From an uncultured Candidatus Rokubacteria bacterium (lineage in GTDB: Bacteria > Methylomirabilota > Methylomirabilia > Rokubacteriales > DASRDR01), in contig CAWDVE010000019.1 of NCBI GenBank assembly GCA_963805625.1, forward strand, positions 352,001 to 416,000: 64,000 bases of DNA. Direction: 5' to 3'. The position numbers and the translations under genes are program-made. Below, in pieces: positions 6,554 to 57,030 of this stretch; within the stretch, counting starts at the first letter, position 1, and each line of letters starts with the position of its first letter. Under the pieces are notes generated by a model. The model had not been told where the DNA came from, did no database searches, and was given only the letters and a program-made list of their open reading frames with translations.

Positions 6554-6578
6554 TGTCCCATCCCGTCCCCACCTGGGG
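6554..6578. promoter_or_regulatory. Candidate upstream activator site
   Basis: TGTCC-CATCCCGT-CCCCA-CC-TGGGG, matching the recurring motif. Confidence 0.45.
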
Positions 6579-6939
6579 AGGGCGCTCAGCCCCAACGCTC
6601 CTCGAGGAGGCCGCCCTGGCAGAGGGGCGTGGCGGACGTCGACGACCTCGCCGAGGTGCCTGTAGACGAAGGCGGCATCCTCGGCCACGCGCGATTTGGG
6701 CTTGCCATGTCCCACCGGCGCCTCAGTTGAGGCACCGGCGTCTCCTGACGTGGTGGCAGGAGCAGTAAGATGGCCTCCAAGGCTTCAGGGATGGGCTCCG
6801 GATCCGGGCATGGGGATCGCACGGTGTAGTTTGACGGCCGTGATGGCCAGAGCCGTGGACGGAGCGCGACGGGAACCGCAGGCGTGATGTCGGCGGGTGC
6901 GGCTGGGCCCGAAAGGCGGAGGATCCGGGAGGGGAGCGC

Positions 6940-7254
6940 ATGGGGCCCAAGAAGGGTGTGCAGTCGAGAGTTCGGCGGACTACTCGGCGCGGCAAGCCCC
7001 GGCGCTGGGTCAAGACCGTCACTACCATCTCCACGAAGACACCGACGGGATTGTTCACTCGCGACGCTGCGACCATCGCGCGGACGCTCGCCTTGCCGCG
7101 CGTCAGTCCGAAGGGGTCGGTCTCCGGCCTGCGGATGCTGTCCTTCTTCATCAATCGCGCGGGCCGCGGGCTATCGCGGTCACGCCGAGCCGAGCTCGAG
7201 AAGGCCAAACGGCTCATGCGGAAGGCGATTGCCGCAGCACGGGCCAGGAGCTGA
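6940..7254 (+). CDS. DUF3175-like small basic protein
   Basis: GLFTRDAATIARTL...GLRMLSFFINRAGRGL...RAELEKAK. Confidence 0.75.
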   Translation: MGPKKGVQSRVRRTTRRGKPRRWVKTVTTISTKTPTGLFTRDAATIARTLALPRVSPKGSVSGLRMLSFFINRAGRGLSRSRRAELEKAKRLMRKAIAAARARS

Positions 7255-7258
7255 TGCC

Positions 7259-7699
7259 ATGAAGGTGCGGGAGGTCATGCGGCAAGCGCTCCTGACGGTG
7301 AGACCCGACATCCCGGCACGGATGGCGGCCAAGATGATGCGTACCCACCAGGTGAGACACCTTCTCGTGACCGACGAGGAAGAGCGGCTGATTGGCATCC
7401 TGACCGACCGCGATCTTCGGCACGCAGCGTTCCTGCCCCTCCTCGCGCCGCACCTCGCGTGGGAGGAGCGATGGCTGAAGGCGCCACGGGTGCGGGACGT
7501 GATGACCTGGAAGGTCGTGACGATCGAACCGGACGTCGACCTCGTCCGAGCCGGCCTTCTGATGTTCGAGCGGCGCATCGGGAGTCTGCCGGTCACGGAC
7601 CATGGGACGCTGGTCGGGATCGTGACCGAGCGCGATGTGTTCGAGGCGTTCCGAACAGCCGGCGAGTCCTCGGATCCGGCCGAGCTCTACCTGGGCTGA
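7259..7699 (+). CDS. CBS-pair domain protein
   Basis: MKVREVM; RHLLVTD..GILTDRDLR; GSLPVTD..GIVTERD. Paralog of 1302-1769. Confidence 0.9.
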   Translation: MKVREVMRQALLTVRPDIPARMAAKMMRTHQVRHLLVTDEEERLIGILTDRDLRHAAFLPLLAPHLAWEERWLKAPRVRDVMTWKVVTIEPDVDLVRAGLLMFERRIGSLPVTDHGTLVGIVTERDVFEAFRTAGESSDPAELYLG

Positions 7700-7761
7700 C
7701 CTTCTCGAGCTGCCTTCGTGGTGTTGGCGACCCACGTGCTCTCCCGCCCGCCGCTCGATTC

Positions 7762-10485: not shown

Positions 10486-10562
10486 CCGCTGAACCCGCCA
10501 TCGCGCCGCGCCTTCTGTTGCGTCAGACTTGCATCTGTCCGCGCGTTGCCAGCAACAGGGGA

Positions 10563-10982
10563 TCAGCCGCGGCGGCGGTTGAGACCCTGTCGGCCGGACC
10601 TGCGCTCGGGCGCGGCGCCTGTGCCCCCGGCCTCCGGCGTCATGAGCCGCTTCGCGGTGTAGTACTTCTTGGGATGCCGCTTGCTCTCCCGGTCGCGATC
10701 ACGGTAGCGTTCGAGCTCCCGCTCGAGCTTCGCGAGCGCGCCGTCGAAGGCGGCCCGTAGCGTCTCCGCAGTGTCCTCGACGCGGACGTGCGGGCGATAC
10801 GGCAGCCGCACCGTGAGTGCGCAGCGCATGGCTGGCCCGCCTTTCGGCCCGTTCTCGTCGAAGAGGGTCGCCTGCGCTGTGATCGGTTTCGTGGCCAGGT
10901 GGGCCAGGGCCGCCGTCAGCTGCGCCGTGATACGGGCGCGCAGGGCACGGTCAGCGGGGACGCCTCGAATCTCGATCGCCAT
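10563..10982 (-). CDS. HPF/RaiA family ribosome hibernation protein
   Basis: IEIRGV..ALRARI; DENGPKGG..RC; AAFDGALAKLEREL. Confidence 0.75.
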   Translation of the reverse strand: MAIEIRGVPADRALRARITAQLTAALAHLATKPITAQATLFDENGPKGGPAMRCALTVRLPYRPHVRVEDTAETLRAAFDGALAKLERELERYRDRDRESKRHPKKYYTAKRLMTPEAGGTGAAPERRSGRQGLNRRRG

Positions 10983-11051
10983 GGTCTCGCTCCTTGTCCG
11001 GCTCTGAGCTGCTCGTCAGTCGGGCGCGTCGGACGTGCCCATTCCGGCGAG

Positions 11052-11067
11052 TGCAATGGAGGTGCCA
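11052..11067 (-). promoter_or_regulatory. Sigma54 promoter of the hpf-like gene
   Basis: TGGCACCTCCATTGCA, near-consensus. Confidence 0.8.
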
Positions 11068-11106
11068 GAAGAATGCGGGGTAAACGGGGCAACTGACATC
11101 GTTCTC

Positions 11107-11144
11107 TGTCCCGCCGATGCCTCGGGTGAGGCGATCTCTCCCCA
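11107..11144. promoter_or_regulatory. Candidate tandem activator site
   Basis: TGTCC-CGCCGATG-CCTCG-GG-TGAGG-CGATCTCT-CCCCA. Confidence 0.6.
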
Positions 11145-11361: not shown

Positions 11362-12396
11362 TCAGTGGAGCGCCTTGACGATCTCGTCCTGCGCCACCCA
11401 GGGGAACGGCACCGGTCGTCCGTCCCGCCGCGCCACGACGCCGCGACCGGCTTCGATCTGGCCGATCGCGTGCCCGACGATGGCGTTTCGTCGCCAGGCG
11501 CGCAGCAGCGCGCCGACCCGGCTCGGCGCGATGGCCACCAAGAGAGCGCCCGATCCGATGAGGCCGAGTGGGTTGATGCCGAAGTGGCGGCAGAGACGCG
11601 CGGTCGCGGGTCGGATCGGCACGCGATCGAGCTCGACCCGAAGGCGGACGCCAGACGCGTGCGCCAGCTCGTGAAGGGCGGCGCGCACACCGCCTTCCGT
11701 CGGGTCGTGCATCGCTGACGCCCGGAGACGGGCCGCCGTCAGCGCCTCCGTCACCACCGAGATCCCGGGGTGACGTCGGAAGCCCTGGGCCCGGCGCAGC
11801 AGGGCGGCAGGCATCGCCCGCCGAAGCTCCCGGGCGCGCTCTTGGGAGAGAATCGCCGTGCCCTCGATGCCCGCGGCCTTCGTGAGCAGCACCACGTCGC
11901 CCGGGCGGGCACCTGCCGCCGTGATCGGCCGGCGCCCGATCAGGAGCCCTTGCATGTCGCCGGCCACGATCGCCCGGGTGACTCCGTCCGTGACCTCGGT
12001 GTGTCCTCCCGTCACGGCGATGCCGAGCGTCCGACACGCCCGGTCAATGTCGCGGACGATGGCCACGACGTGTGAGGCCCGGGTGCCCGGGGGCAAGAGG
12101 ATCGTCGGCTGGAACCAGCAGGGCCGGGCGCCCATGACGGCGATGTCGTTGGCGTTCACCTGGACGACGTACCAGCCGAGGTGGGTCGTCGCGAACGTCA
12201 CCGGGTCGCTCTTGAGCACGAGCCCCCGAGGGCCAACCCTGACAACCGCCGCATCCACGCCACAGCCGGGTCCCACCAGCACGCGATCATCTCTCGCCCC
12301 GCGCCACCGCAGCAGTCGATCGAGCAAGGCGGGCGGAAGCTTCCCCAGGCGCAGGGTCGATCTGGCCGACGGCACGCGGATCGCCGATCTGTTCAT
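11362..12396 (-). CDS. AIR synthase-related protein (PurM/HypE/ThiL fold)
   Basis: GKLPP..L, GPGCGVDAAV, KSDPVT, VNANDIAVMGA, GGHTEVT, MHDPTEGG. Own ATG at 12396 in an ATGA overlap. Confidence 0.85.
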   Translation of the reverse strand: MNRSAIRVPSARSTLRLGKLPPALLDRLLRWRGARDDRVLVGPGCGVDAAVVRVGPRGLVLKSDPVTFATTHLGWYVVQVNANDIAVMGARPCWFQPTILLPPGTRASHVVAIVRDIDRACRTLGIAVTGGHTEVTDGVTRAIVAGDMQGLLIGRRPITAAGARPGDVVLLTKAAGIEGTAILSQERARELRRAMPAALLRRAQGFRRHPGISVVTEALTAARLRASAMHDPTEGGVRAALHELAHASGVRLRVELDRVPIRPATARLCRHFGINPLGLIGSGALLVAIAPSRVGALLRAWRRNAIVGHAIGQIEAGRGVVARRDGRPVPFPWVAQDEIVKALH

Positions 12397-15078
12397 CGCC
12401 GGCCCACTCGGGCCTGGGCGGCCTTGAGGGCCTCGAGGAGCACTACCGGCCACAGGATACACAGCGTCACCAGACCCCAGTCGCCGGCCGAAAGGCTCAC
12501 CGTCCCGAGGAGATGCGCGAGCGGGGCCCAGGACACGGCCGTCCACTGAACCGCCCAGAGGACCGCGAGCGCGACCCAGGAGAGGCCATTCGGGGGCAAT
12601 CGCCACCATCCGAGCCGATCCGAGCGGCAGTTCATCGCCTGGAGCGGGTGGATCAGGACGAGCGCGACGAATGCGATGGTGCTGGCGCGGGGGCCCGGGC
12701 CGTCCTGCCAGACCGCCCAGAGGTAGGCGCCCAGCGACGCCGGCACTCAGGAGGGCGCCCTCCGCCAGCATGCGCCGCCCGAAGCGCCACGTGACGAGGG
12801 CGTCCCGCGGGTCCCGCGGCGGACGACGCATGACGTCGGGCTCGGCCGGATCGCGGATCAGGGCCATCGCGGGCAGGATGTCCGTGACCAGGTTCACCCA
12901 CAGAATCTGGAGCGGCAGGAGCGGGGCGGGGAAACCCAGCAGGATCGCGACGAAGACGGCCAGGATCTCGGAGAGGTTGCAGGTGAACAGGAAGTGGATG
13001 ACCTTGCGCAGATTGGCGTAGATCACCCGGCCTTCCTCGACCGCCCGGGCGATCGTTGCAAAGTTGTCGTCGGTGAGGACGATGTCGGCCGCCTCGCGCG
13101 CGATGTCCGTACCGTGGCGCCCCATGGCGACCCCGATGTCCGCCCGAGCCAGGGCCGGGGCGTCGTTGACGCCATCCCCGGTCATAGCCACGATCTCGCC
13201 TTCGGCCTGGAGCGCCATGATGAGGTCGAGCTTGTCCTGGGGGCTGACGCGGCTCCGGATCGATTCGGGCGTGAGGCCCAGCTGGCGACCGACTGCTTCC
13301 GCCGTCAAGCGCTGATCGCCCGTGAGCATGATGGTGCGGATCCCCGCGGTGGCGCAGCGCGCGATCGCCTCCCGGACGCCGCTCCGCACCGGATCCTCGA
13401 GCCCCACGAATCCGAGGAACGTCAGCCCCTCGATGCGGTCGCCCTCCGGCCAGCCCTCGGGGAGCCAGGCTATCGCGAGCACACGAAGCCCATCGCGGGC
13501 GAGCGCCCGGTTCGCCTCGAGGAGAGCGGCCCGGGTCTCCTCGGTCAGTGGCGCCGGGCCCCTCCGCGTGTCGTACTGGATCGACGCCTCGAGCACGGCG
13601 GCGGGCGCCCCCTTCACGCAGAGCACGCGGCCCCCCTCGGTCTCGTGGAGAGTGGCCATCAGCCGAATCGTGGGATCGAAGGGGATCTCTCCGCGCCGCG
13701 GCCACCGGCGGCCGAGGGCAACAGGGTCGAGCCCGGCGTCCAAGGCGGCCGCCAGCAAGGCGATCTCCGTCGGATCGCCCTGGAACTCGAGACCATCCGA
13801 GCCGCGGGTCAGGCTGGCGTCGTTGACGAGCGCGCCTACCGTCAGGAGGCGCGCGAGCTGGGCATCGGCGAGGGGATCGAAAGCCACGTCATCGCGGACG
13901 AACTCCCGCGCCGCTGCGGGTGTGCGGGAGACGACGGCAATCGTCTCTTGGTCCACGTGGAGACGGCTCACGGTCATGCGATTCTCGGTCATGGTGCCGG
14001 TCTTGTCGGTGCAGATCACCGTCGTCGAGCCGAGAGTTTCCACGGCCGGGAGCCGCCGGACGAGCGCTCCCGACCGCGCGAGGCGCCAGAGGCCGGCGGC
14101 GAGCGCCACCGTCGTGACGGCGGGCAGGCCCTCCGGGATCGCGGCGATGGCCAGGGTGATGGCCGTCTCGAGCATGAGCCCGACCGGCTGGCCGCGGAGG
14201 ATTCCCGCCAGGGCGACGACGCTGCACGTCCCGAGCGCGAAGCCGATCAGCCGACGGCCGAGCCACTCGACTTGCCGCTCGAGCGGGGTGGTCCGCTCCC
14301 CGGCGAGGGCGACCAGCTGGCCGATCCGGCCCAGCTCGGTCGCCAGGCCGGTCGCGGTCACGACCGCCACCCCGCTTCCGGCGACCACCGTGGTCCCGAG
14401 GTACACCATCGTGCGTCGGTCGGCGAGCGACGTCTGGGGGGCGAGGCGGGCGTCGGCGTCCTTGTCGACCGGCACGCTCTCGCCGGTCAGGGCCGCCTCG
14501 GCGGTGCGGAGCCGGCTGCCCCGGACGAGCCGCGCGTCTGCCGGGACATGAGCTCCCGCCTCGAGGATCAGCAGATCGCCGGGAACCACCTCGGCGGCGC
14601 GGATCCGGACGACGTCCCCCTGCCGCCGTACGAGGGCCTGAGGCACCGCCAGGGCGCGCAACTTCGCCAGCGAGATGCGGGCCCGCCACTCGGTGAAGAA
14701 CCCGATCCCGGCGTTGAGGAGGAGCGCGGCCAGAATCGCGAGCGCTTCGACGCGCTCCCCGAGCGAGCCCGCGATGGCCGAGGCGGCGAGGAGGAGCAGG
14801 ACGACGAGACTGCGGAACTGGGCGAGCCCGAGACGCCACAGAGGCGTGTCGGGGTGCTCGCCAACGGAGTTTGGACCGATGCGCGCGAGCCGGCGGCGCG
14901 CTTCGTCGGTTCCGAGCCCCGCTTCCGGATCGACGGTCAGGAGATCCAGGACCTCCGACGGCGAGAGGGCGTGCCACTCGCGACTGATCGGGGGACTCCC
15001 GTCGGCGGCCGACGGACCGTCTACCGACGGGTCCGCGGTGCGGGCATGGCCGCTCGGACTCGGTGGCCGCGGCCCCAT
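12393..15078 (-). pseudogene. Cation-transporting P-type ATPase (type IIA/CtpF-like) with a 1-nt frameshift near 12736
   Basis: TGES, PEGL, DKTGT, TGD, GDGVND. The last TM helices (LGAYLW...LLEALK) lie in ORF 12393-12746 in another frame. Confidence 0.8.
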
Positions 15079-16375: not shown

Positions 16376-16437
16376 GGTCCCTCCCCTGGCGGCGCTCGTT
16401 TCCCGTCCTGACGCGCTCGGGCGCCACCCGGCGAGGG

Positions 16438-16453
16438 TGCAACCCGAGTGCCA
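16438..16453 (-). promoter_or_regulatory. Sigma54 promoter (leftward)
   Basis: TGGCACTCGGGTTGCA. Confidence 0.8.
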
Positions 16454-16495
16454 CCGCGGCGGGGCATTGGACATGGGAGGAGGTCGCCTGAGAGG

Positions 16496-16533
16496 TGTCC
16501 CGCCGCTGCCCCGGGTGGGGCGGGTGCTCCGCA
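16496..16533. promoter_or_regulatory. Candidate tandem activator site between divergent sigma54 promoters
   Basis: TGTCC-CGCCGCTG-CCCCG-GG-TGGGG-CGGGTGCT-CCGCA. Confidence 0.6.
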
Positions 16534-16615
16534 CCGGCGCAGCACCCTGGCGAGACCGGGTTGAGCGTGCCCCGCGCCATGCGCCCGAATGTGTAGTCGA
16601 TGCCAGAGATTGGGA

Positions 16616-16631
16616 TGGCAGCGCCGTTGCT
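16616..16631 (+). promoter_or_regulatory. Sigma54 promoter (rightward)
   Basis: TGGCAGCGCCGTTGCT. Confidence 0.7.
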
Positions 16632-16699
16632 AGACGTCTCTTTGGGATCAGGTCCTGCGGGCTGCCAGCCGGGCGCGGATAACCGTCCAGGGGAGAGAG

Positions 16700-22251: not shown

Positions 22252-23727
22252 CTAGCCCTTGATGTTCCCGATGGGGGTGAGGGACACGACCTTTCGGGAG
22301 ATGTCGAGCCGATGGAGGACATCGACGACCTCCGCGAGATCCTTGTAGGCGAAGCCGGCCTCCTCGGCCACACCCGATTTCGACGCGGCGCGCACGAGGA
22401 TACCGCGAGCTTCCATCTCCTGGATCAGCCGCGTGCCGTGGACCCGGCGCTTGGCCTCGTGGCGTGACATCGTGCGCCCGGCGCCGTGGGCCGTCGAGCC
22501 GAAGGTCTCGGCCATCGCATGTGCCGTGCCCACGAGGAGCGCGGAACCGGTTTCCATGGAGCCTCCGATGATCACCGGCTGGCCCACCGCCTGGTATGCC
22601 TCTGGTACGTCCGGAGCGCCGGGACCGAAGGCGCGCGTGGCGCCCTTCCGGTGAACGACCAGCTCCAGGGATTCGCCGTCCACCACGTGGCGCTCCAGCT
22701 TGGCCGTGTTGTGGCAGACGTCGTAGACGACCGACAGCCCGAGCTCGTGAGGGTCGGAGCCAAAGACGGCGCCCATGACCTCCCGGACCCGGTGCGTGAT
22801 TACCTGGCGATTGGCGAACGCCGTGTTGGCCGCCGCCGTCATGGCGGCGAAGTAGGCCTGCCCATCGGGTGAGCGGAACGGCGCGCAGGCGAGCTCGCGA
22901 TCACTGACGGTGATGCCGTAGTGGGGCATCGCCTGGTCGAAGCGGCGGAGGTAGTCCGTCCCGATCTGGTGCCCGAACCCGCGGGAGCCGCAGTGGAGCA
23001 TGACGCACACCTGTCCGGGTCCATCCACCCCCAGGGCCCGGGCCACCTCGGAGTCGTGGATGGCCCCGGGACGGACGACCTGGATCTCGAGATAGTGGTT
23101 GCCGGAGCCGAGCGTCCCCAGTTGGTTCAGACCCCGCTCGAGGGCGCGGGCGCTCACGTGAACGGGATCGGCCCCCGGGAGGCATCCGCGTCCCTCCGTG
23201 TGCTCGAGGTCTTCGGGCCAGCCGTAGCCGTGACGCACGCACCATCCGGCTCCCTCCACCATGACCCGGCGGAACTCGCTGTCGGTCAGTCGCACGAACC
23301 CGTGGGCGCCCACGCCCGACGGGACCGCGCGGAATAGCGCGTCCACGAGGTCGCGCAGCCTGGGCTGCACCTCGGCTTCGGTGAGGCGCGTCCGGATGAG
23401 CCGCATCCCACAGTTGATGTCGAAGCCGATCCCGCCGGGCGAGATGACGCCGTTGTCGGCGCGAAACGCCGCGACGCCACCGATCGGGAAGCCGTACCCC
23501 CAATGCCCATCAGGCATGCAGAGAGCGGCGCGGACGATGCCCGGGAGACAGGCCACGTTCGTCACCTGTTCGAAGACCCCGGCGTCCATCTGCGCGAGCA
23601 ACGTCTCGGAGGCGTAGATGCGCGCCGGGACCCGCATGCCAGCCTTTTGGCTTGCCGGGATCTCCCAGATGCAGTCCCCGGCCGGCTCGACTTTCATCCC
23701 GGACGTTGTTGCGATCGTCACCGGCAT
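22252..23727 (-). CDS. rtcB: RNA-splicing ligase RtcB (archease-dependent type)
   Basis: MPDGHWGYGFPIGG, GIGFDINCG, GTLGSGNHYLE, HCGSRGFG, HRKGAT, HGAGR. Confidence 0.96.
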   Translation of the reverse strand: MPVTIATTSGMKVEPAGDCIWEIPASQKAGMRVPARIYASETLLAQMDAGVFEQVTNVACLPGIVRAALCMPDGHWGYGFPIGGVAAFRADNGVISPGGIGFDINCGMRLIRTRLTEAEVQPRLRDLVDALFRAVPSGVGAHGFVRLTDSEFRRVMVEGAGWCVRHGYGWPEDLEHTEGRGCLPGADPVHVSARALERGLNQLGTLGSGNHYLEIQVVRPGAIHDSEVARALGVDGPGQVCVMLHCGSRGFGHQIGTDYLRRFDQAMPHYGITVSDRELACAPFRSPDGQAYFAAMTAAANTAFANRQVITHRVREVMGAVFGSDPHELGLSVVYDVCHNTAKLERHVVDGESLELVVHRKGATRAFGPGAPDVPEAYQAVGQPVIIGGSMETGSALLVGTAHAMAETFGSTAHGAGRTMSRHEAKRRVHGTRLIQEMEARGILVRAASKSGVAEEAGFAYKDLAEVVDVLHRLDISRKVVSLTPIGNIKG

Positions 23728-23756
23728 TCCCTATGGCCCGCGTGTGCGGCGACCGC

Positions 23757-24185
23757 TCAGATGTCGATCACGAGCCGGGCACGCCAGCCACCGTTGACGG
23801 CGATCACCTCGAACCGGTGGAAGGTCACGGCCTTGGGATCGGCCCGCAGGGCCGTCCGTACCCGATCGATGACGCCGCCGTGGACGTCCGCTTCCAGCCT
23901 GAACGGACCGTCCCCGCTGACCCGAACCCGCGCCTGCGGGAAGACCTCCCGGTCGCGGTCCTTCCGGTAGATGAGCTCAGACAGCCAGTCGTAGAACAAC
24001 AAGTCCACCTCGTCGGCCGAGAGCGCGATCCGCCGCTCGACTGAGGTCTCCACGGTCGCCGGATCGACCATGAGCTCGACTAGGGCGCCCGCCGCTGTCT
24101 CGAAGAGATCGTTCAGGTCCCGGCCTTCGACCTCGAGGGCGCAGTCAGCGAGGGCCACGTTCTCCAAGACTTGATATCGGCCCAC
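23757..24185 (-). CDS. Archease
   Basis: ADCALEVEG..L..LF..A; DWLSELIY; KAVTFH...ARLVIDI; adjacent to rtcB. Confidence 0.9.
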   Translation of the reverse strand: MGRYQVLENVALADCALEVEGRDLNDLFETAAGALVELMVDPATVETSVERRIALSADEVDLLFYDWLSELIYRKDRDREVFPQARVRVSGDGPFRLEADVHGGVIDRVRTALRADPKAVTFHRFEVIAVNGGWRARLVIDI

Positions 24186-24199
24186 ACCGGGACCCCTGG

Positions 24200-24215
24200 T
24201 GCAACCGGAATGCCA
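24200..24215 (-). promoter_or_regulatory. Sigma54 promoter of archease-rtcB
   Basis: TGGCATTCCGGTTGCA. Confidence 0.75.
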
Positions 24216-24266
24216 CGAGCCCCGCGAGCCTTCGGCGGCGATTCAGGCCGCGATCGGCTACCTCGG

Positions 24267-24303
24267 TGGGACATGAATGCCCCGCGAGGGCAAACGAGCC
24301 CCA
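24267..24303. promoter_or_regulatory. Candidate tandem activator site
   Basis: TGGGA-CATGAATG-CCCCG-C-GAGGG-CAAACGAG-CCCCA. Confidence 0.5.
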
Positions 24304-24920: not shown

Positions 24921-26057
24921 TTACAACCGGCCCGGCTCCTGCAGGAGCCGATCCACCGCGACCAAGAAGAGCCCGCCGCGATGGCCATCCGTCACGCGGT
25001 GGTCGGCCGAGAGTGTCGCCGTGACGACTGGCCGCGGCATGATCTGGCCCTGGACCACCCAGGGCCGCTCCACGATCTTGCCGAAGCCCACGATCGCGAC
25101 TTGGGGAGGATAGATGATGCCGAAGACGCTCTCCACGCCCTGCTCGCCCAGGCTCGTCACTGTGATCGTAGGATCGGAGAGCTCGGAGCTCCGCAACGTG
25201 CCGGCGCGGGCGCGTATGACGAGGTCGCGGAGACTTCGCATGAGCTCGTCCAGGCTCTGGTGATCCGTGTCGTGCAGGGCGGGGGCGACGAGGCCGCCGG
25301 ATCGCAGAGAGATGGCAACGCCGACGTGGATCACCGGACTCGGCTCGACCTTCCCGGCGATCCATCGCGCGTTCAGCTCCGGGACCTCCCGGAGGGCGAG
25401 CGCCACCGCCTTTATGAGGAGGACGCCGAGGAGAAGGCGGTCCGGCACGGGCCGCTTCGCGTTCTCGACCGCCAACCAGTCTGTGGCGCGACCCAGGTCA
25501 ATCGTGGTGCCGAGGTAGTAATGTGGAATCTCGCGCTTGGCGCGCGCCATGGCAGCCCCGACGGTCTGCCGGAGCTGGGCCTGGCGGTCGACGACGCCCG
25601 GGGGAGGCGCCGGCGGGGTGCCGGATGGGATCGCGGGCTGCTGGGCCGCGGCCCGTTCGACGTCCTCGCGGGTGATCGCCCCGTCCGCGCCGGTCCCCGG
25701 GATCGCGGCCGGGTCGATCCCGAGTTCGGTGGCGAGCTTCCGCGCTAGCGGGGAGATCCGGAGTCGGCGGGACGTCGGCGGAGCCGCCGCGGGTGCCGGG
25801 GACGGAGTCCCGGCCGCTGCGCCGTCCTCTCGAATGAACGCCAGCACCGTTCCGACCGGCACCTTCTGGCCGGGTTGGACCAGGACCCGCTCGAGCACGC
25901 CGTTGGCGAAGATCTCGACGTCGATGAGCCCCTTCTCGGTCTCGACCTCGGCTACGACGTCCCCGCGCTTGACGCGATCACCCGGGTTCTTGCGCCAGGC
26001 GACGAGCGTGCCCGCCTCCATGTCCGCCCCCAGGATCGGCATCAGGAACTCAGCCAC
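24921..26057 (-). CDS. pdhC: 2-oxoacid dehydrogenase E2 (dihydrolipoamide acyltransferase)
   Basis: Lipoyl domain VETEKG, binding domain [12 protein letters not shown], catalytic DHRVTDG. Confidence 0.9.
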
Positions 26058-27036
26058 GGCGCTTTCGCATCTCCCGGATGGCGTGGACGATGGTCGTCGC
26101 CTGGGGCAGGGCCGCGTCCTCGAGGTGCTTCGCGTACGGCATCGGCACCTCGGCGCTGCACAGCCTCGCCACCGGCGCGTCCAGGTCGTAGAAGGCGCCT
26201 TCCATGATCTGGGCGCTGATCTCCGCGGCCAGGCTCCCGGTGCGCCAGGCCTCATCGACGACAAGAGCCCGATGCGTCTTGGCGACCGAGGCCATGATGC
26301 CCTGCGTGTCGAGCGGACGGAGGGAGCGGAGATCGAGGACCTCCGCCTCGATACCCTCCGCGGCGAGTTGCTCGGCGGCCTCGAGACCCTTCCACAGTGA
26401 TCCGCCGTACGTGATCACTGTCACATCGGCACCCGAGCGCCGGACGGCGGCCCGCGTGAGGTCGCGGGGGAGTGCGGTGTCGTCGATCTCGCCCTCCATC
26501 GGGTAGAGCATCGCGTGCTCGAAGATGAAGACGGGATCCGGATCCTGGAGGGCGAGCCGCAGCATGCCCCGGGCGTCGGCCACCGTGGCCGGGGCCACGA
26601 CCCTGATGCCGGGGATGTGCGCGTACCAGCCCTCGAGGCTGTGGGAGTGCTGGGCGGCCAGCTGGCGACCGCCGCCGGTGGCCATGCGCACGACCAGCGG
26701 GACGCTCAGCTGACCGCCCGACATGTGGCGCAGGGTGGCCGCGTTGTTCACGATTTGATCCAGGGCCAGCAGGCTGAAGTTGACGGTCATGATCTCGACG
26801 ATCGGACGCATGCCGCCCAGCGCGGCGCCGACGCCGGCTCCGACGAAGGTCGATTCGGACAGCGGTGTGTCGCGTACTCGGTCGGGTCCGAACTCCTCGA
26901 GGAGACCCTTGCTGCACGCGTAGGCGCCGCCGTAGCATCCGACGTCTTCACCCATGAGGAAGACGCGCGGGTCACCGGCGAGAGCCTCCCGCAGTGCCGC
27001 CCGGACCGCTTCCCGGTAGGTCAGCTTGACGGTCAT
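26050..27036 (-). CDS. pdhB: Pyruvate dehydrogenase E1 beta
   Basis: [23 protein letters not shown]. Confidence 0.92.
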
Positions 27037-28031: not shown

Positions 28032-28039
28032 CGCAGGCC

Positions 28040-29800
<1,761 letters not shown>

Positions 29801-29847
29801 TCATCCCTCCTCGCGAGACAGACACCCCTGCGGTCGCTGGGTCCTGG

Positions 29848-29863
29848 TGCATCCAGGGTGCCA
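29848..29863 (-). promoter_or_regulatory. Putative sigma54 promoter of acsA-pdhABC-acp
   Basis: TGGCACCCTGGATGCA. Confidence 0.65.
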
Positions 29864-29925
29864 CAGGCTTTGTCCATCAAATTGGTGGCTTGTCGACCTC
29901 CGGGCGCTGACGTGCCGCCCCAGCT

Positions 29926-29943
29926 TGGGGTGCGGGTGCCCCA
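29926..29943. promoter_or_regulatory. Candidate activator site
   Basis: TGGGG-TGCGGGTG-CCCCA. Confidence 0.5.
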
Positions 29944-31995: not shown

Positions 31996-32051
31996 CGCCG
32001 AACCTCCTAAAGGGCAGTAGCCGGTTCGCCGGCACCGCTGTCCTGAGCACT

Positions 32052-32067
32052 CGCAACCGGCGTGCCG
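32052..32067 (-). promoter_or_regulatory. Putative sigma54 promoter of cbs-pncB
   Basis: CGGCACGCCGGTTGCG. Confidence 0.65.
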
Positions 32068-32129
32068 GGGGGAGCGGGCTGGAACGGTTCGTCCCGGGCG
32101 ATCCAGCCCTCGCCTGAGAACAGCCTTGG

Positions 32130-32166
32130 TGTCCCGCTCGTGTCCCACTGCGGCAACGTCTCCCCA
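32130..32166. promoter_or_regulatory. Candidate tandem activator site
   Basis: TGTCC-CGCTCGTG-TCCCA-C-TGCGG-CAACGTCT-CCCCA. Confidence 0.6.
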
Positions 32167-37254: not shown

Positions 37255-38466
37255 CTAGCAGACCGGGTACTGGCCGCCGATCAGCTCGCTCCGGAAGACC
37301 GGCATCCGGACCAGCTCGGCATCGACGATGTCCCGCACGCGACGTTCGATGTCCGCGAGGGCAACGCCGGCGGCCAGCACCAGCTGCACGCCCGTCCACG
37401 GCCGGTCGACCGGCTCCCCGATGCGCGTCGCGAGGTGCACGTACACTTCCCGGAGCCCGGGGCACCGCGCGTGGATCTCGCGCGCCAACCGGTGGCTGAG
37501 GACGCTGTAGAGTTTGCCCGGATGCCCCACGGGATTCTTCCCAGGGGCCGCCTCGCTCCCGGCGGGCCGAGCGAAGGCGATGAGGCCATTGACGCGGTTG
37601 CCGCGCCCGACCTGACCCGAGTCGGCGTCCTCCGCCGACGTGCCGGTCAGCGTCAAGTACGTTCCGTCCGCTCCCCGGCCAGGCCGGTCCAGACTGTTGA
37701 GGCTCCAGGAGAGCTCGAGCGGCGCGGCGCGGAACCGCTCGACAAGGGCTTCCAGCACCGCCTCCTTCCGGGCGAAATATGCCGCCTCCGACGCGACAGC
37801 GTCGCAGCGGAAGGGCATCGCCACGGTCAGTGACACATGGCCGTCCCGGCGGAGACCAAACACCTTGACGTCTTCGCCGGTGTCAGGAAACGCGACCTTG
37901 AATTCGGGGCCGTTCAGATAGCGCTCGACCGCGAGGACCAGTTCCTCCGTCGGGGTGAGCGGCGCGTATCCGGATGCGGCTGACGTGTCGTTGGCCTCGA
38001 GCTCACGCTCATCGCCCACGTAGATCGCCCGGAGCTCGGCCGAGGCGGGGGCCAGCACGGTGCGGATTCGGAGGTGCTCCTTCGACCGGAGATGTGGCAG
38101 GTGACGTCCGACCCAGGTCTCGACCGCGGACCGCACCGTGTCCTCGACGGGGAGTGTTGTAGCCGGCCGGTCGCCGAGCGCCAGCGTTGCGCGGTCACCT
38201 ACGATGAATTCGATCGGGCGGATGATGTCCCCCCCACCGAACCCCTTGCGACACTGGCCGGCCACCAGGAAGGCCTTGTCGATGTTGTAGTGGAGAATGG
38301 CGCCCGCTCGCTCGAGATACATCCGGCCCAAGGCCTGGGAGATCACCTCAACGAGCGCATCACAGATGGTATCCGGATGGCCGATGCCCTTCCGTTCGAC
38401 CAGCTCCATTCGTCGTTCGGCGATTGGCGTCGCCGCCGGCGCCTCGATCATCAGCCGCTCTCGCAT
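37255..38466 (-). CDS. Methionine adenosyltransferase, archaeal type
   Basis: VERKGIGHPDTICD, ANDTS, GEDVKV, DSGQVGRGNRVNGLI, GKNPVGH. Confidence 0.9.
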   Translation of the reverse strand: MRERLMIEAPAATPIAERRMELVERKGIGHPDTICDALVEVISQALGRMYLERAGAILHYNIDKAFLVAGQCRKGFGGGDIIRPIEFIVGDRATLALGDRPATTLPVEDTVRSAVETWVGRHLPHLRSKEHLRIRTVLAPASAELRAIYVGDERELEANDTSAASGYAPLTPTEELVLAVERYLNGPEFKVAFPDTGEDVKVFGLRRDGHVSLTVAMPFRCDAVASEAAYFARKEAVLEALVERFRAAPLELSWSLNSLDRPGRGADGTYLTLTGTSAEDADSGQVGRGNRVNGLIAFARPAGSEAAPGKNPVGHPGKLYSVLSHRLAREIHARCPGLREVYVHLATRIGEPVDRPWTGVQLVLAAGVALADIERRVRDIVDAELVRMPVFRSELIGGQYPVC

Positions 38467-38635: not shown

Positions 38636-38699
38636 GCGAGCGGCTCCCGGACTGGCCTGCCGTGGCATGTGGGCAGCCCTGTTCCACGCCCGCCCGTTC

Positions 38700-38715
38700 T
38701 GGCACACGGGTTGCT
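38700..38715 (+). promoter_or_regulatory. Sigma54 promoter of usp-DUF2267
   Basis: TGGCACACGGGTTGCT. Confidence 0.8.
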
Positions 38716-38785
38716 GCTCTCCTTGCCGAGAGCGCGAACCTGCAGACCGGTGCGTGCGGCGCATCGCGCCTTAGGAGGCTTGGCG

Positions 38786-39651: not shown

Positions 39652-39669
39652 TGGGGCAAGGTTGCCCCA
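39652..39669. promoter_or_regulatory. Candidate activator site (palindromic)
   Basis: TGGGG-CAAGGTTG-CCCCA followed by TC-TGGGG. Confidence 0.5.
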
Positions 39670-39767
39670 TCTGGGGCGGCCCCGGGACAGGCCTGGAGTC
39701 TTGGCCGAGGGCGGGCGTGGACCTTTGCGGACCTGACCTCCTCCTCGGGTGGGCGTGGGAGGACGGG

Positions 39768-41797: not shown

Positions 41798-41815
41798 TGA
41801 GGCGGTGTCGCCCCA
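41798..41815. promoter_or_regulatory. Candidate activator site
   Basis: TGAGG-CGGTGTCG-CCCCA preceded by CCCCG-AC. Confidence 0.5.
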
Positions 41816-41900
41816 TCGCTCGATCGCTGGCGAACGTCCGGCCTGGGGCGCGAAAGTGCTGGAGCTACTTCGCTGTGGCTGCGCAAGCGGTGTGGTTCCG

Positions 41901-41916
41901 TGGCAGATCGGTTGCA
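41901..41916 (+). promoter_or_regulatory. Putative sigma54 promoter of the second E1 pair
   Basis: TGGCAGATCGGTTGCA. Confidence 0.7.
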
Positions 41917-42124
41917 CGAGCGGTGCGCCGATGGGAGCGCTCACGACTCCAGTGCCGGCCGCGATGCCGGGTGAACATGACGAGGCGGTGCGATCGCTGA
42001 GTCGCCGCGCCAAACCAGGATTGAGAAGACCCAGGAGAGGCCACGGGGTGATGGCTTCAGCGAGACCATGGGAGATCGCACCACGCGGCCGGCCGACCGG
42101 TCGACGTATCGCGTAGAATTAGGC

Positions 42125-43258
42125 ATGCCGCGCATCCCGATCGAACCGCAATTCACCATCGAGTATCTGTCGATTCTTGATGCCGATGGCCGGCTCGACG
42201 AGGCTCTTGCACCGCACCTCGCACCGGACGACCTGAAGCGCCTCCACCGGGCCATGCTGCTCGGCCGTCGCCTCGACGAGCGAATGCTTCGGTTGCAGCG
42301 CCAGGGGCGCATCGGCACGTTCGCCCCGATCAAGGGCCAGGAAGCCTCGCAGCTCGGGAGTGCGTTCTGCCTACGTCCGACGGACTGGATGGTGCCGTCG
42401 TTTCGCGAGACGGCGGCCATGGTGTGGCGAGGCTGGCCAATCGAGAAGCTCCTGCTGTTCTTCTCGGGCTACCTCGAAGGCGGTCAGCCCGCTCCGGACC
42501 AGCGGGACCTGCCCATCACGATCCCGGTGGCGACTCAGCTGCCTCATGCCGTGGGGCTCGCCTACGCGGCACAGTACCGGGCCGATCCGGCGGTCGTCAT
42601 GGTCTTCTTCGGTGACGGGGCGACGTCGGAGGGGGATTTCCACGAAGCCCTCAACTTTGCGGGCGTCTGGCAGGTACCCGTCGTCTTCGTCTGCCAGAAC
42701 AATCAGTGGGCCATCTCGGTTCCGCTGAAGAAGCAGACACACTCTCGCACGCTCGCGAGCAAGGCCCTGGCGTACGGCCTCCCCGGCATCCAAGTGGACG
42801 GCAATGACATCCTGGCCGTGGTGGCCGCGAATCGCGAGGCAGTCGAGCGGGCGCGAGCTGGAGGTGGGCCGACGCTCATCGAATGCGTGACCTACCGGCT
42901 TGGTGTCCACACGACGGCCGACGACCCGACCCGATATCGCTCGGCCGAGGAGCTCGCCGCCTGGGAGCGCAAGGACCCGTTGACGCGCTTCACGGCGTAC
43001 ATCCGGGCGCGAGGGCTCCTCGACGAGAGACTGGAGCAAGAGATCGACGCCGAGATCGCGGCGGCCGTTGAGCGCTTCGAGGCGGCGCCGCCCCCCGATC
43101 CTCTCCGGATGTTCGACCACGCCTACGGGCAGCTGCCGCTGGATCTTCAGCGTCAGCGCGCGGCGATGGCGGAGCGGCTAGGTGACAGCCGCCAGCCGCC
43201 TCCGGTCGAGGGACTCCGATCACCGCCGATGCGAGGCCAGCGGACGCCGCGGCCATGA
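42125..43258 (+). CDS. pdhA: Pyruvate/branched-chain 2-oxoacid dehydrogenase E1 alpha (second, distinct clade)
   Basis: LQRQGRIG, GQEASQ, GDGATSEGDFHE, QNNQWAIS, TYRLGVHTTADDP. Confidence 0.9.
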   Translation: MPRIPIEPQFTIEYLSILDADGRLDEALAPHLAPDDLKRLHRAMLLGRRLDERMLRLQRQGRIGTFAPIKGQEASQLGSAFCLRPTDWMVPSFRETAAMVWRGWPIEKLLLFFSGYLEGGQPAPDQRDLPITIPVATQLPHAVGLAYAAQYRADPAVVMVFFGDGATSEGDFHEALNFAGVWQVPVVFVCQNNQWAISVPLKKQTHSRTLASKALAYGLPGIQVDGNDILAVVAANREAVERARAGGGPTLIECVTYRLGVHTTADDPTRYRSAEELAAWERKDPLTRFTAYIRARGLLDERLEQEIDAEIAAAVERFEAAPPPDPLRMFDHAYGQLPLDLQRQRAAMAERLGDSRQPPPVEGLRSPPMRGQRTPRP

Positions 43259-44235
43259 GCAAGCTCAGCATGGTCAAGGCGCTGAACCTGGCGCTGCGCC
43301 AGGAGATGGAGCGCGATTCGGACGTGCTGATCATCGGTGAGGACGTCGGGATCGACGGCGGCGTCTTTCGGGTGACCGACGGGCTCCACGCCGCGTTCGG
43401 GTCGAAGCGCGTGATGGACAGCCCCCTGGCCGAGTCGGCGATCATTGGCGTGTCGATCGGGATGGCGCTCTACGGACTCAAGCCCGTCTGCGAGATCCAG
43501 TTCTCGGGGTTCGGCTTCCAGTGCTTCCATCAGATCGAGAATCACGCCGCACGCTACCGCATGCGATCCCAGGGACGCTTCGCCGTGTCCATGGTGGTCC
43601 GGATGCCGTACGGCGGCGGGGTTCGGGCGCTGGAGCACCACTCGGAGTCGGAAGAGCAGTTCTACGCGCACATCCCCGGGCTCACGATGGTGATCCCGTC
43701 CGGCCCGCGGAACGCGCGAGCGCTCCTGGTGAGCGCGCTCCGCCATCCCGACCCCGTGGTGTTCTTCGAGCCGAAAGCGCTCTACCACGCGGCCAGTGAA
43801 GAGGTGCCCGACGAGAGTGAGGCGTTTCCTCTCGGCCGCGCGCAGGTGCTGCGCGAAGGCCGCGCCCTGACGCTCGTCGCCTACGGCGCCATGGTCCGCG
43901 TGGTCCTCGAGGTCGCGGATCGGCTCCGGGCGGAGGACGGCGTGGAGGCCGAGGTGGTCGACCTGCTGACGCTGTCGCCCCTGGACCGGGAGACCCTGGC
44001 GAGCTCTGTCAGCAAGACAGGGCGGGCGGTGGTGGTCCATGAGGCCCCGAAGAGCTTTGGTCCCGGTGCCGAGATCGCCACGTCGATTATGGAAGGGGCC
44101 TTTCTGTCGCTCCAGGCGCCCATCGCGCGCGTTACGGGGCACGACGTGCCCTTCGTCGGGTTCGCGCGCGAGCAAGCGAACCTTCCCGGCGTGGCTCGCG
44201 TGCTGGCGGCCGCCCGGGAAACGCTGGCGTTCTAG
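43255..44235 (+). CDS. pdhB: 2-oxoacid dehydrogenase E1 beta (second)
   Basis: GEDVG.DGGVFRVT, DSPLAES, EIQF, EHHSES. Confidence 0.9.
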   Translation: MSKLSMVKALNLALRQEMERDSDVLIIGEDVGIDGGVFRVTDGLHAAFGSKRVMDSPLAESAIIGVSIGMALYGLKPVCEIQFSGFGFQCFHQIENHAARYRMRSQGRFAVSMVVRMPYGGGVRALEHHSESEEQFYAHIPGLTMVIPSGPRNARALLVSALRHPDPVVFFEPKALYHAASEEVPDESEAFPLGRAQVLREGRALTLVAYGAMVRVVLEVADRLRAEDGVEAEVVDLLTLSPLDRETLASSVSKTGRAVVVHEAPKSFGPGAEIATSIMEGAFLSLQAPIARVTGHDVPFVGFAREQANLPGVARVLAAARETLAF

Positions 44236-47739: not shown

Positions 47740-47777
47740 TGGGGTGGTCGCGCCTCGGGTGGGTAGTCCGGACCCCG
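47740..47777. promoter_or_regulatory. Candidate tandem activator site
   Basis: TGGGG-TGGTCGCG-CCTCG-GG-TGGGT-AGTCCGGA-CCCCG. Confidence 0.55.
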
Positions 47778-47830
47778 GCACGTGTGGCGACAGGGATGAG
47801 CTCGGCATTGGAGACGGGAGGTTACGTGGC

Positions 47831-47846
47831 TGGCAGCGCCATTGCA
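47831..47846 (+). promoter_or_regulatory. Putative sigma54 promoter of the efflux operon
   Basis: TGGCAGCGCCATTGCA. Confidence 0.7.
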
Positions 47847-47860
47847 AACTGACCGCGTCG

Positions 47861-55280: not shown

Positions 55281-55402
55281 CGCGGCGGAGTCGGGCCGCG
55301 TGCGACGTGGTCCGGGTGCCAACCGAGCCCGGCGCAGGATGCGGTCTCGGCCGTGCCTGTCAGCGCCGAGCAGCGCCGGGGACCACCTGCCGACAGAGGA
55401 GC

Positions 55403-55837
55403 CTAAGGCTGGGCCACTTCGGCCTCGAGACGGATGGGGGTTGCCAGCGAGGCAGAGACGAGGCACGCGCGCTCCGCCTTTTCCATGGCGCGCCGCGCCC
55501 GGTCCGGGTCCGCCCCGGCCGCGAGCCGGAGGCGCGGCCGGAGGATGATCTCCGTGAAGCGCGTCACGCCATCCGAGCGGTCGACGGTCCCTTCGGCGGT
55601 CACCTCACACCTCGTGAACTCGACCCGCGAGGCCCGCGCGACGGCACGCAGGGTGAACAGGAAGCAGGTTTCCACGGCGGCCAACAGGAGTTGCTCGGGG
55701 CTCCACGCGTCGCCGGGTCCGTCGAAGTCGATGGGCGGCGCGCTCCGGAGATCGGGGAGTCCGTCAGCCGTGGCGAGGGCGTGGCCATCGGGGCCCCCGC
55801 CGAGCCGGACCGAGTAGCGGTGGGGCAGGGGCTTCAC
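55403..55837 (-). CDS. OsmC family protein
   Basis: FDGPG..WSPEQLLLAAVETC...AERACLVSASL. Confidence 0.88.
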   Translation of the reverse strand: MKPLPHRYSVRLGGGPDGHALATADGLPDLRSAPPIDFDGPGDAWSPEQLLLAAVETCFLFTLRAVARASRVEFTRCEVTAEGTVDRSDGVTRFTEIILRPRLRLAAGADPDRARRAMEKAERACLVSASLATPIRLEAEVAQP

Positions 55838-56781
55838 CGTCCGACTCCTCTCGGCGTTGCCCCCGGAACAGGCTCTTCCCGCGCGCTGGCGGGGGCGATC
55901 GTGAGCACCGGGCACGGGGCCGTCTGGATCACGCCATGCGCGACCGAGCCAAGCATCCAGCGGACGACACCCGACCAACCGTGAGTGCCCATGACGATGA
56001 GGTCGGCCGCATGCTCCTGGGCGCTGTGGACGATCTGTTCGTCCGCGATTCCCCGGGCGACGCGCACGCGGATCCGCTCGCGCGGCAGCGTGGACCCCTC
56101 GAGGAACCGTTCGACTTCCATGCGTCCCTGCTCGTCCAGGAGCTTGGCCATCCGGCCAATCGTCTCCGCAGACATGTGAGGATCGGTGACGGGCTCGAAG
56201 GTGACGTGAACCAGGTCCACGTCGGCGCCGGCGGCGTTCGCGATGGCGACGACCCACAGCCAGGCGGCCCGGGAGGTTGGTGAGAAGTCCGTCGCGTAAC
56301 AGATCCGACGGATCTCAGGCCGCGGTTTGCTCCCCGGGATGGGTCGGACCGTCAGAACCGGGCACGTCGCCTGGCGCACGAGCCGATCCGCAACACTGCC
56401 GATGAGGGCGCGCTGGAGCCCGGCGCGGCCGTGAGTCCCGACGACCAGGAGATCGGCCGCCTCTTCTGTCACGACCTCCAGGATCCGGGGGGCCGGCTTC
56501 CCCTCCTCAACCCGCATCCGGACCTTCAGTCCCGAGCCCGCCACGCTGCCGAGCAGGCGATCGAACCCCTCCTCCGCAGTACGGCGCGCGTTCTGGAGGA
56601 GTTCTTCATAGAGGTTGGGAGGAAAGTAGCCCTCGGTGGGAAGGACGAATGGTGGCGGGGACACGTGCAGAAGCAGGATCTCGGCGCCGAACAGCCGGCC
56701 GAGCCGCCGGGTCTCGTACCAGGCCGGCTCCGACACGGAGGAAAGATCCGTCGCGTAGACGATTCGGTGGATTGTAGTCAC
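55834..56781 (-). CDS. Tandem-domain universal stress protein
   Basis: Two USP domains (IVYATDLS / ICYATDFS), each with GTHG..G..GSVA..CPVL. Confidence 0.92.
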   Translation of the reverse strand: MTTIHRIVYATDLSSVSEPAWYETRRLGRLFGAEILLLHVSPPPFVLPTEGYFPPNLYEELLQNARRTAEEGFDRLLGSVAGSGLKVRMRVEEGKPAPRILEVVTEEAADLLVVGTHGRAGLQRALIGSVADRLVRQATCPVLTVRPIPGSKPRPEIRRICYATDFSPTSRAAWLWVVAIANAAGADVDLVHVTFEPVTDPHMSAETIGRMAKLLDEQGRMEVERFLEGSTLPRERIRVRVARGIADEQIVHSAQEHAADLIVMGTHGWSGVVRWMLGSVAHGVIQTAPCPVLTIAPASAREEPVPGATPRGVGR

Positions 56782-56856
56782 GGGCCCCCTCATCACCGAC
56801 CGTGAGGTCGACACTCGGTCATCATCGGGAGCCACGCTGGCTCCCTCCGTCGACCG

Positions 56857-56872
56857 TGCAACGATGGTGCCG
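56857..56872 (-). promoter_or_regulatory. Putative sigma54 promoter of usp-osmC
   Basis: CGGCACCATCGTTGCA. Confidence 0.7.
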
Positions 56873-57012
56873 TGGTTACGCCGCTGGGCGGCGGATGCCC
56901 TCCCGCCACGGACTCGCGGGGTCGCCCGCCCCGTTTGCGCCTCAATGGGGTCCATCGATGGCCACACGACTCGGTGCCGAGGAGAGGTCGGATGCCCCAT
57001 TGCCGGGACACC

Positions 57013-57030
57013 TGGGGTATGGCGGCCTCA
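57013..57030. promoter_or_regulatory. Candidate activator site
   Basis: TGGGG-TATGGCGG-CCTCA. Confidence 0.45.

Follow-up and report, generated by a model that had tools for sequence, protein, structure and literature searches.

A recurrent 18-base dyad upstream of sigma-54 promoters in a Rokubacteria gene cluster: a candidate enhancer for an NtrC-type activator

Genes, dyads and promoters of the window

The 64,000-nucleotide stretch of an uncultured Candidatus Rokubacteria genome analysed here (the window; G000:C19:352001-416000, where G000 is the genome itself and C19 the contig bearing the window) carries genes for several universal stress proteins (USPs) and CBS proteins, HPF/S30AE, GroEL, DksA/TraR, two cation P-type ATPases, PfkB, BON and PCMT, together with RtcB-archease, RtcA, NAD salvage enzymes, acetate-CoA ligase and two sets of pyruvate dehydrogenase (PDH) E1. 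Between these genes an 18-base palindrome is repeated, mostly upstream of -24/-12 promoter matches of the sigma-54 type. This repeated palindrome is real, and we consider it likely, from the sequences compared, that the dyad is the enhancer of an NtrC-type activator encoded in the same gene cluster, with a predicted low-oxygen switching via a heme-PAS kinase.

The genome amounts to 7.27 Mb at ~69.5% GC and holds one rpoN. Contigs C26, C28 and C1 are partial duplicates of C17, C19 and C10 (91-99.9% identity), which fits the contamination figure of 6%, and because of this duplication one dyad site outside the cluster was counted twice. Gene boundaries are those of a self-trained dicodon gene model, and sigma-54 promoters were scored with a -24/-12 matrix seeded with the sigma-54 consensus and built on the intergenic DNA of the genome itself. 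Distances run from the edge of the dyad to the start of the 18-base promoter window, which begins two bases before the GG.

An initial annotation of this DNA had listed ten intergenic copies of a pattern TG(G/A)GG-N8-CC(C/T)C(A/G), and all ten coordinates hold the sequence it described. The ten sites are intergenic under the gene model, although two of them, 16496 and 32130, are covered by longest-ORF extensions that start at upstream GTG/TTG codons not used by the model. The pattern is exact at six of the ten loci (11127, which is the second unit of the site at 11107, then 29926, 39652, 41798, 47740 and 57013) and degenerate at the other four (6554, 16496, 24267 and 32130). Two more strict matches, at 17499 and 60312, had been missed; both are intragenic, with no sigma-54 match nearby.

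From left to right, a degenerate tandem dyad at 6554..6594, made of a TGTCC-type unit (6554-6571) and a partner reaching to 6594, lies 61 bp from the minus-strand promoter of the DksA/TraR-GroEL-USP genes (6476..6493, score 13.4; DksA/TraR at 6090-6431, GroEL at 4427-6040). An extra tandem absent from the initial annotation follows at 6697..6745 (units 6697, 6708 and 6728), upstream of a CBS gene (7259-7699), with only a weak plus-strand sigma-54 match near it (5.7, at 6805). The tandem at 11107..11144, whose strong unit is 11127-11144, stands 59 bp from the minus-strand promoter (11051..11068, score 20.5) of the ribosome-hibernation gene S30AE/HPF (10563-10982). The next one, at 16496..16533 with its strong unit at 16516, is common to divergent promoters, one 62 bp away on the minus strand (16437..16454, score 20.0) before USP, DUF6335 and cation P-type ATPase genes, the other 82 bp away on the plus strand (16615..16632, score 17.9) before nucleotidyltransferase, BON, PfkB, CBS and PCMT-erythromycin esterase genes. 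Units 24267 and 24286, 19 bp apart (24267..24303), are found 51 bp from the archease-RtcB promoter (24199..24216, minus strand, score 20.2), and a near-perfect dyad (29926-29943) with a weak partner at 29905 (29905..29943) is 62 bp from the promoter of the acetate-CoA ligase/PDH operon (29847..29864, minus strand, score 16.6; acetate-CoA ligase, PDH E1/E2 and ACP genes).

Further right, a TGTCC unit at 32130 and a strong unit at 32149 (32130..32166) separate the CBS-NAPRTase genes (minus strand) from the RtcA-NadE genes (plus strand), with a weak minus-strand match (32051..32068, score 7.3) upstream of CBS and nicotinate phosphoribosyltransferase, and a perfect dyad with its partner (39652..39689) precedes a PCMT gene. 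A single strong dyad (41798..41815) is located 85 bp from the plus-strand promoter of the second PDH E1 alpha/beta pair (41900..41917, score 17.5) and 170 bp from a weaker minus-strand promoter. The tandem 47740..47777 (units 47740 and 47760) is 73 bp from the plus-strand promoter of the HlyD/FtsX/ABC exporter genes (47830..47847, score 17.0), and the strong dyad 57013..57030 is 140 bp from the minus-strand promoter of the tandem-USP and OsmC genes (56856..56873, score 14.0). Proximity to a -24/-12 match, as first proposed for most sites, is thus found for nine of the ten, at 39-170 bp, the match of 32130 being the weak one, and not for 39652.

The two PDH E1 sets (24921-29800 and 42125-44235) are of different NCBIfam types, and each lies behind a dyad and a sigma-54 match. 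Likewise RtcB with archease (22252-24167) and RtcA (32435-33466) both lie behind the putative dyad enhancer, and the activator of the cluster described below, the one protein compared with the RtcR model, scores far below its cut-off. Two other features of the window concern its genes only. The minus-strand frame 11362-15078, of 1238 aa, joins a cation P-type ATPase to a C-terminal AIRS/SelD-ThiL-like domain, an unusual fusion or a frameshift artefact, and at 37255-38466 (minus strand) an archaeal-type methionine adenosyltransferase (PF01941) adjoins a tRNA-editing domain protein.

Enrichment, tandem layout and promoter pairing

The strict pattern is enriched over a GC-matched background: the whole window gives 14 strand-matches, a number reached by none of 100 dinucleotide shuffles (2.92 +/- 1.74), and its intergenic DNA (10,352 bases, 69.8% GC) holds six strict sites versus a shuffle mean of 0.45 and a maximum of 3 in 500 shuffles. 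The spacer length is specific, since among TGRGR-Nn-YCYCA patterns in intergenic DNA genome-wide n=8 gave 52 matches and the other 20 spacers 9-28, and over C19:300-416 kb the same test gave 12 matches at n=8 and 0-5 at other spacers. A set of 71 distinct sites from this genome and its relatives, part of which had been selected by the strict pattern, refined the consensus to TG(G/A)GGC(G/A)-N4-(C/T)GCC(C/T)CA over 18 bp, with G at positions 3, 4 and 5 in 76%, 99% and 97% of cases and no conservation of the N4 spacer letters.

Most dyads come in tandem, a weaker partner unit being found at +/-19-21 bp in 48 of 74 sites, compared with 0-5 at four other offset sets, and the two units are separated by 1-3 bp. 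The four tandems described earlier as opening with TGTCC (6554, 11107, 16496 and 32130) do so, and two more of this type were found in the window, at 6708 and at 39665-39689 (minus strand). The TGTCC unit is the promoter-proximal, degenerate tandem partner, read off the other strand.

The pairing of dyads with promoters was examined in DNA held out from the definition of the motif. A matrix was built from nine window sites and applied, with a threshold score of at least 10.5, upstream of sigma-54 candidates. It found a dyad at 9 of the 11 candidates in C19:309-352 kb, the 43 kb left of the window, versus 11 of 141 elsewhere (Fisher p=9e-8); the corresponding count within the window (7/11) is circular, the matrix having been trained on window sites. 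In the typical layout the dyad stands about 50-100 bp upstream of the -24/-12 promoter, and distances within this genome bunch near 51, 62, 72, 83 and 93 bp, about one helical turn apart, with a Rayleigh R of 0.51-0.60 at periods 10-11.5 (n=27 including one duplicate site, broad peak). The distance set from relatives is biased by the search window. Moreover, a short pattern, YA(A/G)-N4-YGATY, with its last base 16-17 bp ahead of the promoter, is present at 9 of 74 dyad promoters, compared with 2 of 193 non-dyad promoters at any position from 5 to 30. We call it only IHF-like because it was picked after viewing the sequences and because it is one base shorter than the IHF consensus. RNA data (12 runs, shares 0.05-0.23) gave contigs covering parts of the HPF gene and not its promoter, and are uninformative on starts and regulation.

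Chance GC-rich palindromes, terminator stems or REP-like elements could be expected to mimic such a motif in a genome of ~69.5% GC, where the loose pattern matches 284 loci, mostly intragenic. This explanation is nevertheless scarcely credible, being contradicted by the spacer specificity, the shuffles, the held-out enrichment and the fixed tandem spacing, as well as by the unconserved spacer letters, the conservation together with promoters across species (see below) and an Rfam scan of the window, which gave no match.

Candidate activator, sensor kinase and cluster targets

A single master activator encoded outside the window had been proposed, and this idea gains support from the enrichment of the motif, from its conservation with sigma-54 promoters in relatives and from one in-cluster candidate, an NtrC-type protein at C19:330489-331853, 21 kb left of the window, whose presence tracks the motif across genomes. 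The extent first given to the cluster has to be corrected, as it spans ~100 kb, running left of the window to about C19:309 kb, and some 10 more candidate targets lie outside it in the genome. The candidate has the receiver-AAA+-Fis helix-turn-helix (HTH) architecture with its receiver phospho-Asp, Walker motifs, GAFTGA loop and Fis-type HTH intact, and is the only DNA-binding regulator detected in the cluster, the genome encoding 38 activator-like proteins (48 domain matches), one of them within it. Its operon bears a perfect dyad 63 bp from its own promoter and is therefore probably autoregulated. The best NCBIfam score is to AtoC, at 469 versus a cut-off of 714, and the protein is below the cut-off of all 25 models listed; its recognition helix, D-R-K-T-x-H, is invariant in 18 orthologues and defines a distinct HTH group. 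Its best named relatives are labelled Rokubacteria or Methylomirabilota, with a top match at 91% labelled Gemmatimonadota, and among the 120 of 1,955 matches listed the named best matches are Rokubacteria/NC10 save one label. Orthologues with a helix DRKTLHVLL or DRKTLHSLL (L067:8693, 19472; L068:8700, 17112) have TGCGGT-type half-sites nearby, a possible helix-site covariation. A 212-aa ORF at C19:314547, suspected from its size to be a NarL-type regulator, had no Pfam match and was rejected as such.

Conservation of the motif together with sigma-54 promoters held up across the order. Relatives were taken as a first set of 20 and then as a draw of 160 genomes, of which 117 belong to the same order, with 161 searched overall; the composite pattern consists of a promoter plus a dyad, with a gap of 48-78 in the cross-genome search. 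In the first set, orthologues of at least 64% identity, scored before the pattern search, were present in 14 genomes, and the pattern occurred in 13 of these 14 and in none of the six others. Order-wide, 57 genomes had both the HTH and the pattern, 10 the HTH only, 10 the pattern only and 40 neither (57/67 versus 10/50), and within 13 mixed genera the pattern was found in 34 of 40 genomes with the HTH versus 5 of 34 without, an odds ratio of 16 that none of 100,000 permutations equalled. Overall, 69 of the 161 genomes carry the composite pattern, which is therefore usable to annotate low-oxygen/dormancy genes from sequence alone, and a reversed-pattern control gave 2 matches in the 161. The dyad alone discriminates relatives poorly, its counts often equalling those of the reversed control; only promoter plus dyad separates genomes.

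The surroundings of the orthologues point the same way. Around six orthologue loci we counted 14 dyad-promoter pairs in 99 kb, versus 2 in 1,230 kb around 74 other activators, and 12 of 16 orthologue loci have a sigma-54 match preceded by a dyad, in many cases right behind the activator gene. Among the 10 HTH-only genomes, the three that we checked (G047, G152 and G057) each have a near-consensus dyad missed by the strict pattern. Outside the order, the composite match at this gap occurred in 1 of 43 genomes, and the Binataceae genome with an orthologue (G022) had none at the 48-78 gap. In family f8 the dyad, often TGGGAC...GTCTCA, lies farther from the promoter, with 8 and 4 matches in two genomes and zero control matches, and one of its targets is again an NXR-type alpha subunit. 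From these comparisons, the activator at C19:330489-331853 is very likely the protein for the dyad site.

That another sigma-54 activator encoded elsewhere binds the dyad, or that two do so jointly with the TGTCC-type units as half-sites of the second, seems to us quite improbable. The genome has its 38 or so activator-like proteins, one of them with a GAF domain ~1 kb from the off-cluster site C17:772926, and the candidate is missing from four pattern-positive assemblies. Against this stand the co-occurrence with the candidate within genera, the dyads directly beside its orthologues in distant families and the paucity of composite sites around other activators. Moreover, a GlrR-type TGTC-N10-GACA box was tried and rejected as the source of the TGTCC units, its intergenic rise being mild (22 versus 8-16 at most spacers). 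A dyad unrelated to the present one, TGTCG-N6-CGACA, often flanked by GTCA/TGAC, recurs at ~12 intergenic places over C17:619878-673256 (partly duplicated on C26); these copies surround an NtrC-type activator at C17:645595-646962 and probably form a second large activator regulon.

A soluble PAS-GAF-HisKA-HATPase kinase is encoded at C19:336936-338528, 5 kb from the activator gene, and in 10 of 22 loci examined the activator gene is immediately preceded by a kinase-core homologue. All 14 PDB matches of its PAS domain are heme-PAS proteins (FixL, DosP and FG214, the last at 1.7e-18). His58 aligns with the proximal His156 of FG214 and with the FixL histidine there, and is kept in L066, L205 and L206; His61 and Met74 match His159 and Met172 in the numbering of the FG214 preprint (bioRxiv 10.64898/2026.03.15.711900). 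Heme binding by the PAS domain and the direction of its signalling are predictions. Sensor domains vary among relatives. Three more receiver-domain proteins, in which no DNA-binding domain was detected, are encoded at C19:313433-314374, 328444-328812 and 338878-339252 and are possible phosphorelay or phosphate-sink partners.

The part of the cluster left of the window adds more USP and CBS genes, HSP20, a hibernation-type release-factor homologue, PolX, LigA and PEP synthase, as well as a formate/nitrite channel, a heme-copper oxidase, NrfA/NrfH-like genes and a molybdoenzyme operon. The latter encodes a single-copy NXR-type alpha subunit (C19:309681-313145; L032:14681-18145, minus strand) with beta, heme-b and chaperone genes; the alpha subunit matches the NXR structure 7B04 at 4e-271 and NarG at 2e-40, and a perfect dyad lies 92 bp away from the sigma-54 match of the operon. 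The NrfA/NrfH-like genes and the heme-copper oxidase lie near this operon, and none of these Nrf and oxidase genes was found to be preceded by a direct dyad site. Off-cluster matrix hits, one of them the assembly duplicate, include NirK (above its NCBIfam cut-off), pyruvate:ferredoxin oxidoreductase (PFOR) and cytochrome c genes, and several are unannotated. Weak dyads occur near the gene of a PAS-LuxR one-component regulator (C14:137891-138553), which is ~5 kb away from the off-cluster PFOR/oxidase site. Altogether, the cargo overlaps that of the DosR, lxa and NmpR low-oxygen regulons, and presumably includes further DosR matches.

Given the protein-site assignment, low oxygen is the likely signal. 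The same site and activator could instead answer general stress, energy limitation, redox state, NO or CO in a stationary-phase or maintenance regulon, a reading that we regard as unlikely, though less so than the other alternatives. Much of the cargo is generic (GroEL, HSP20, PCMT, RtcA/RtcB, LigA, PolX, LigD-PE, OsmC), the kinase also bears a GAF domain while sensor domains differ between relatives, and FG214, the closest solved PAS, is described as a redox switch in its preprint. Direct sites before the NXR-type operon, NirK, PFOR and cytochrome c genes speak against it, as does the hypoxia induction described for the same cargo in the lxa locus and the DosR regulon (PMC3721108).

We therefore keep low oxygen as the favored signal and propose the following model. 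A fall in oxygen would lead the heme-PAS kinase to phosphorylate the activator, two dimers of which would bind the strong and weak tandem sites on one helix face. The phosphorylated activator would oligomerise and loop to the sigma-54 polymerase, in some promoters probably with the help of an IHF-like bend, and would thereby open some 20 promoters inside the cluster and some 10 outside it; acting on its own operon as well, it would feed back positively on itself. A dormancy/low-oxygen programme would result, made of USPs, CBS proteins, HPF, HSP20, GroEL, repair enzymes and NAD salvage and extending to alternative pyruvate routes, the NXR-type oxidoreductase and NirK.

Several observations weigh against this model. 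In the window, site 39652 has no -24/-12 match within ~260 bp, and conversely a strong promoter upstream of the USP-DUF2267 genes (38699..38716, plus strand, score 17.8) is a miss, with no good dyad upstream (best score 6.0). Of ~200 column-permuted matrices, one reached 8 of the 11 held-out promoters (mean 0.28 of 11). The phasing peak is broad, R still being 0.43-0.45 at periods 9.5 and 12 in a set that holds one duplicate site. Among the 10 genomes with the pattern and no detected activator HTH, five were checked with the full protein: four, 91-95% complete, had no match above 50% identity, and one had fragments. In three family-f7 genomes that have the orthologue the composite matches numbered 0, 0 and 1, so that the regulon is not demonstrated in f7, although one of these genomes does carry a dyad, at 109 bp, in its orthologue locus. 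Of 56 genomes having both a PAS homologue and the activator, only 22 have the two within 10 kb of each other (mostly best hits, in fragmented assemblies), and the PAS domain has no equivalent of the distal His175 of FG214. Lastly, activator and motif could occur together because the cluster is passed on as one unit; as kin, moreover, are not independent, their co-occurrence is support and not proof.

Comparison with known regulons

The mechanism is textbook wiring, the general activation scheme of the NtrC-type family being established as summarized in a study of NmpR (PMC11841059), and the motif itself was not found in the literature searched. This search covered papers open without subscription, RegPrecise being outside its scope, and gave no description of the dyad motif or of a Rokubacteria sigma-54 regulon. 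The main text of the Desulfovibrio regulome paper (PMC4641369) contains no TGGGG or CCCCA string, and its logos and supplements could hold a similar motif. The present work thus offers a concrete candidate triple of regulator, site and sensor for an uncultured soil phylum, for which no such regulon appeared in the literature searched.

With NtrC, AtoC, ZraR and GlrR the candidate activator shares its domain architecture and differs by its NCBIfam scores and its separate D-R-K-T-x-H group. Whereas FixL works with FixJ, a regulator of another family, the PAS-GAF-HisKA kinase is here paired with an NtrC-type activator. The PAS domain retains the proximal His of FixL and other heme-PAS proteins (PDB 1D06, 1DP6, DosP 9BGV, FG214 10JX), and differs from FG214, as numbered in its preprint (bioRxiv 10.64898/2026.03.15.711900), in that the distal His175 is not conserved.

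The lxa locus of Burkholderia cenocepacia, described as low-oxygen-activated (PMC3721108), is likewise a single large cluster under common regulation. It holds six USPs, a small heat-shock protein, PfkB, a cation ATPase and an exporter, and one motif recurs at many of its intergenic points and at a few loci elsewhere. That motif, however, is an Anr/Fnr-like TGA-N6-TCA with CRP-family candidates, and not a sigma-54 enhancer. The likeness to DosR/DevR of Mycobacterium tuberculosis lies in 18-bp boxes whose positions 3-5 form a G run, with a strong box beside a degenerate one in helical phase (PMC3177182), and in a shared cargo of USPs, alpha-crystallin, PfkB and a cation ATPase (PMC3721108). The common length, the G run, tandem boxes ~21 bp apart and the similar cargo would suit a reading of the dyad as a box of the DosR/NarL or CRP/FNR type, to which a response regulator would bind, either acting with sigma-70 or modulating the sigma-54 promoters. 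We judge this highly improbable. DosR is a NarL-type regulator needing C7, present in all 47 Dev boxes described (PMC3177182), whereas the dyad has G or A at this position, C7 occurring in 9 of 142 half-sites and C7 with G12 in 0 of 71 sites. Of 12 GerE matches genome-wide none lies on contig C19, so that the cluster has no LuxR-family HTH; no CRP-family gene maps to it, and the lxa motif differs. The dyads pair instead with -24/-12 promoters and an AAA+ activator candidate.

A broader and rather doubtful proposal is that in Rokubacteria and some related lineages a dormancy programme of DosR scale may depend on a single heme-PAS kinase and a single sigma-54 activator, whose box would have converged on the Dev-box geometry, and that this switch may also drive the genome's single Nitrospira/anammox-type NXR operon and NirK. 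If true, 'nxrAB' in Rokubacteria would be a low-oxygen nitrate reductase instead of marking nitrite oxidation, and the low-oxygen programme of this abundant, uncultured soil phylum could be read from genomes alone by way of the motif. This bears on the reading of nxrAB in soil metatranscriptomes, as in a floodplain study that counted nxrAB under nitrification with Rokubacteria among the active groups, its relevant passages not assigning nxrAB to Rokubacteria (10.1101/2020.05.14.086363).

Compared by its published description, the NmpR system of Myxococcus xanthus is similar in wiring logic and cargo: an autoregulated NtrC-like activator with a heme sensor upstream binds paired dyads before sigma-54 promoters, and its regulon of 7 promoters and 23 genes includes CBS, USP, P-type ATPase and terminal oxidase targets (PMC11841059). 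The sites differ, the NmpR box being GCGCA-N5-TGCGC with 14-15 bp between sites, whereas here an 18-bp G-rich dyad is repeated at 1-3 bp. The sensors differ as well, NmpU sensing via a protoglobin in a phosphorelay, whereas the sole annotated kinase of the cluster, and thus the only counterpart of NmpU/NmpS seen there, is the PAS-GAF-HisKA-HATPase protein, no protoglobin-kinase search having been made in the rest of the genome. With about 30 candidate promoters versus 7, a gene set of the DosR/lxa type would here be wired to sigma-54 on a larger scale than in the NmpR regulon.

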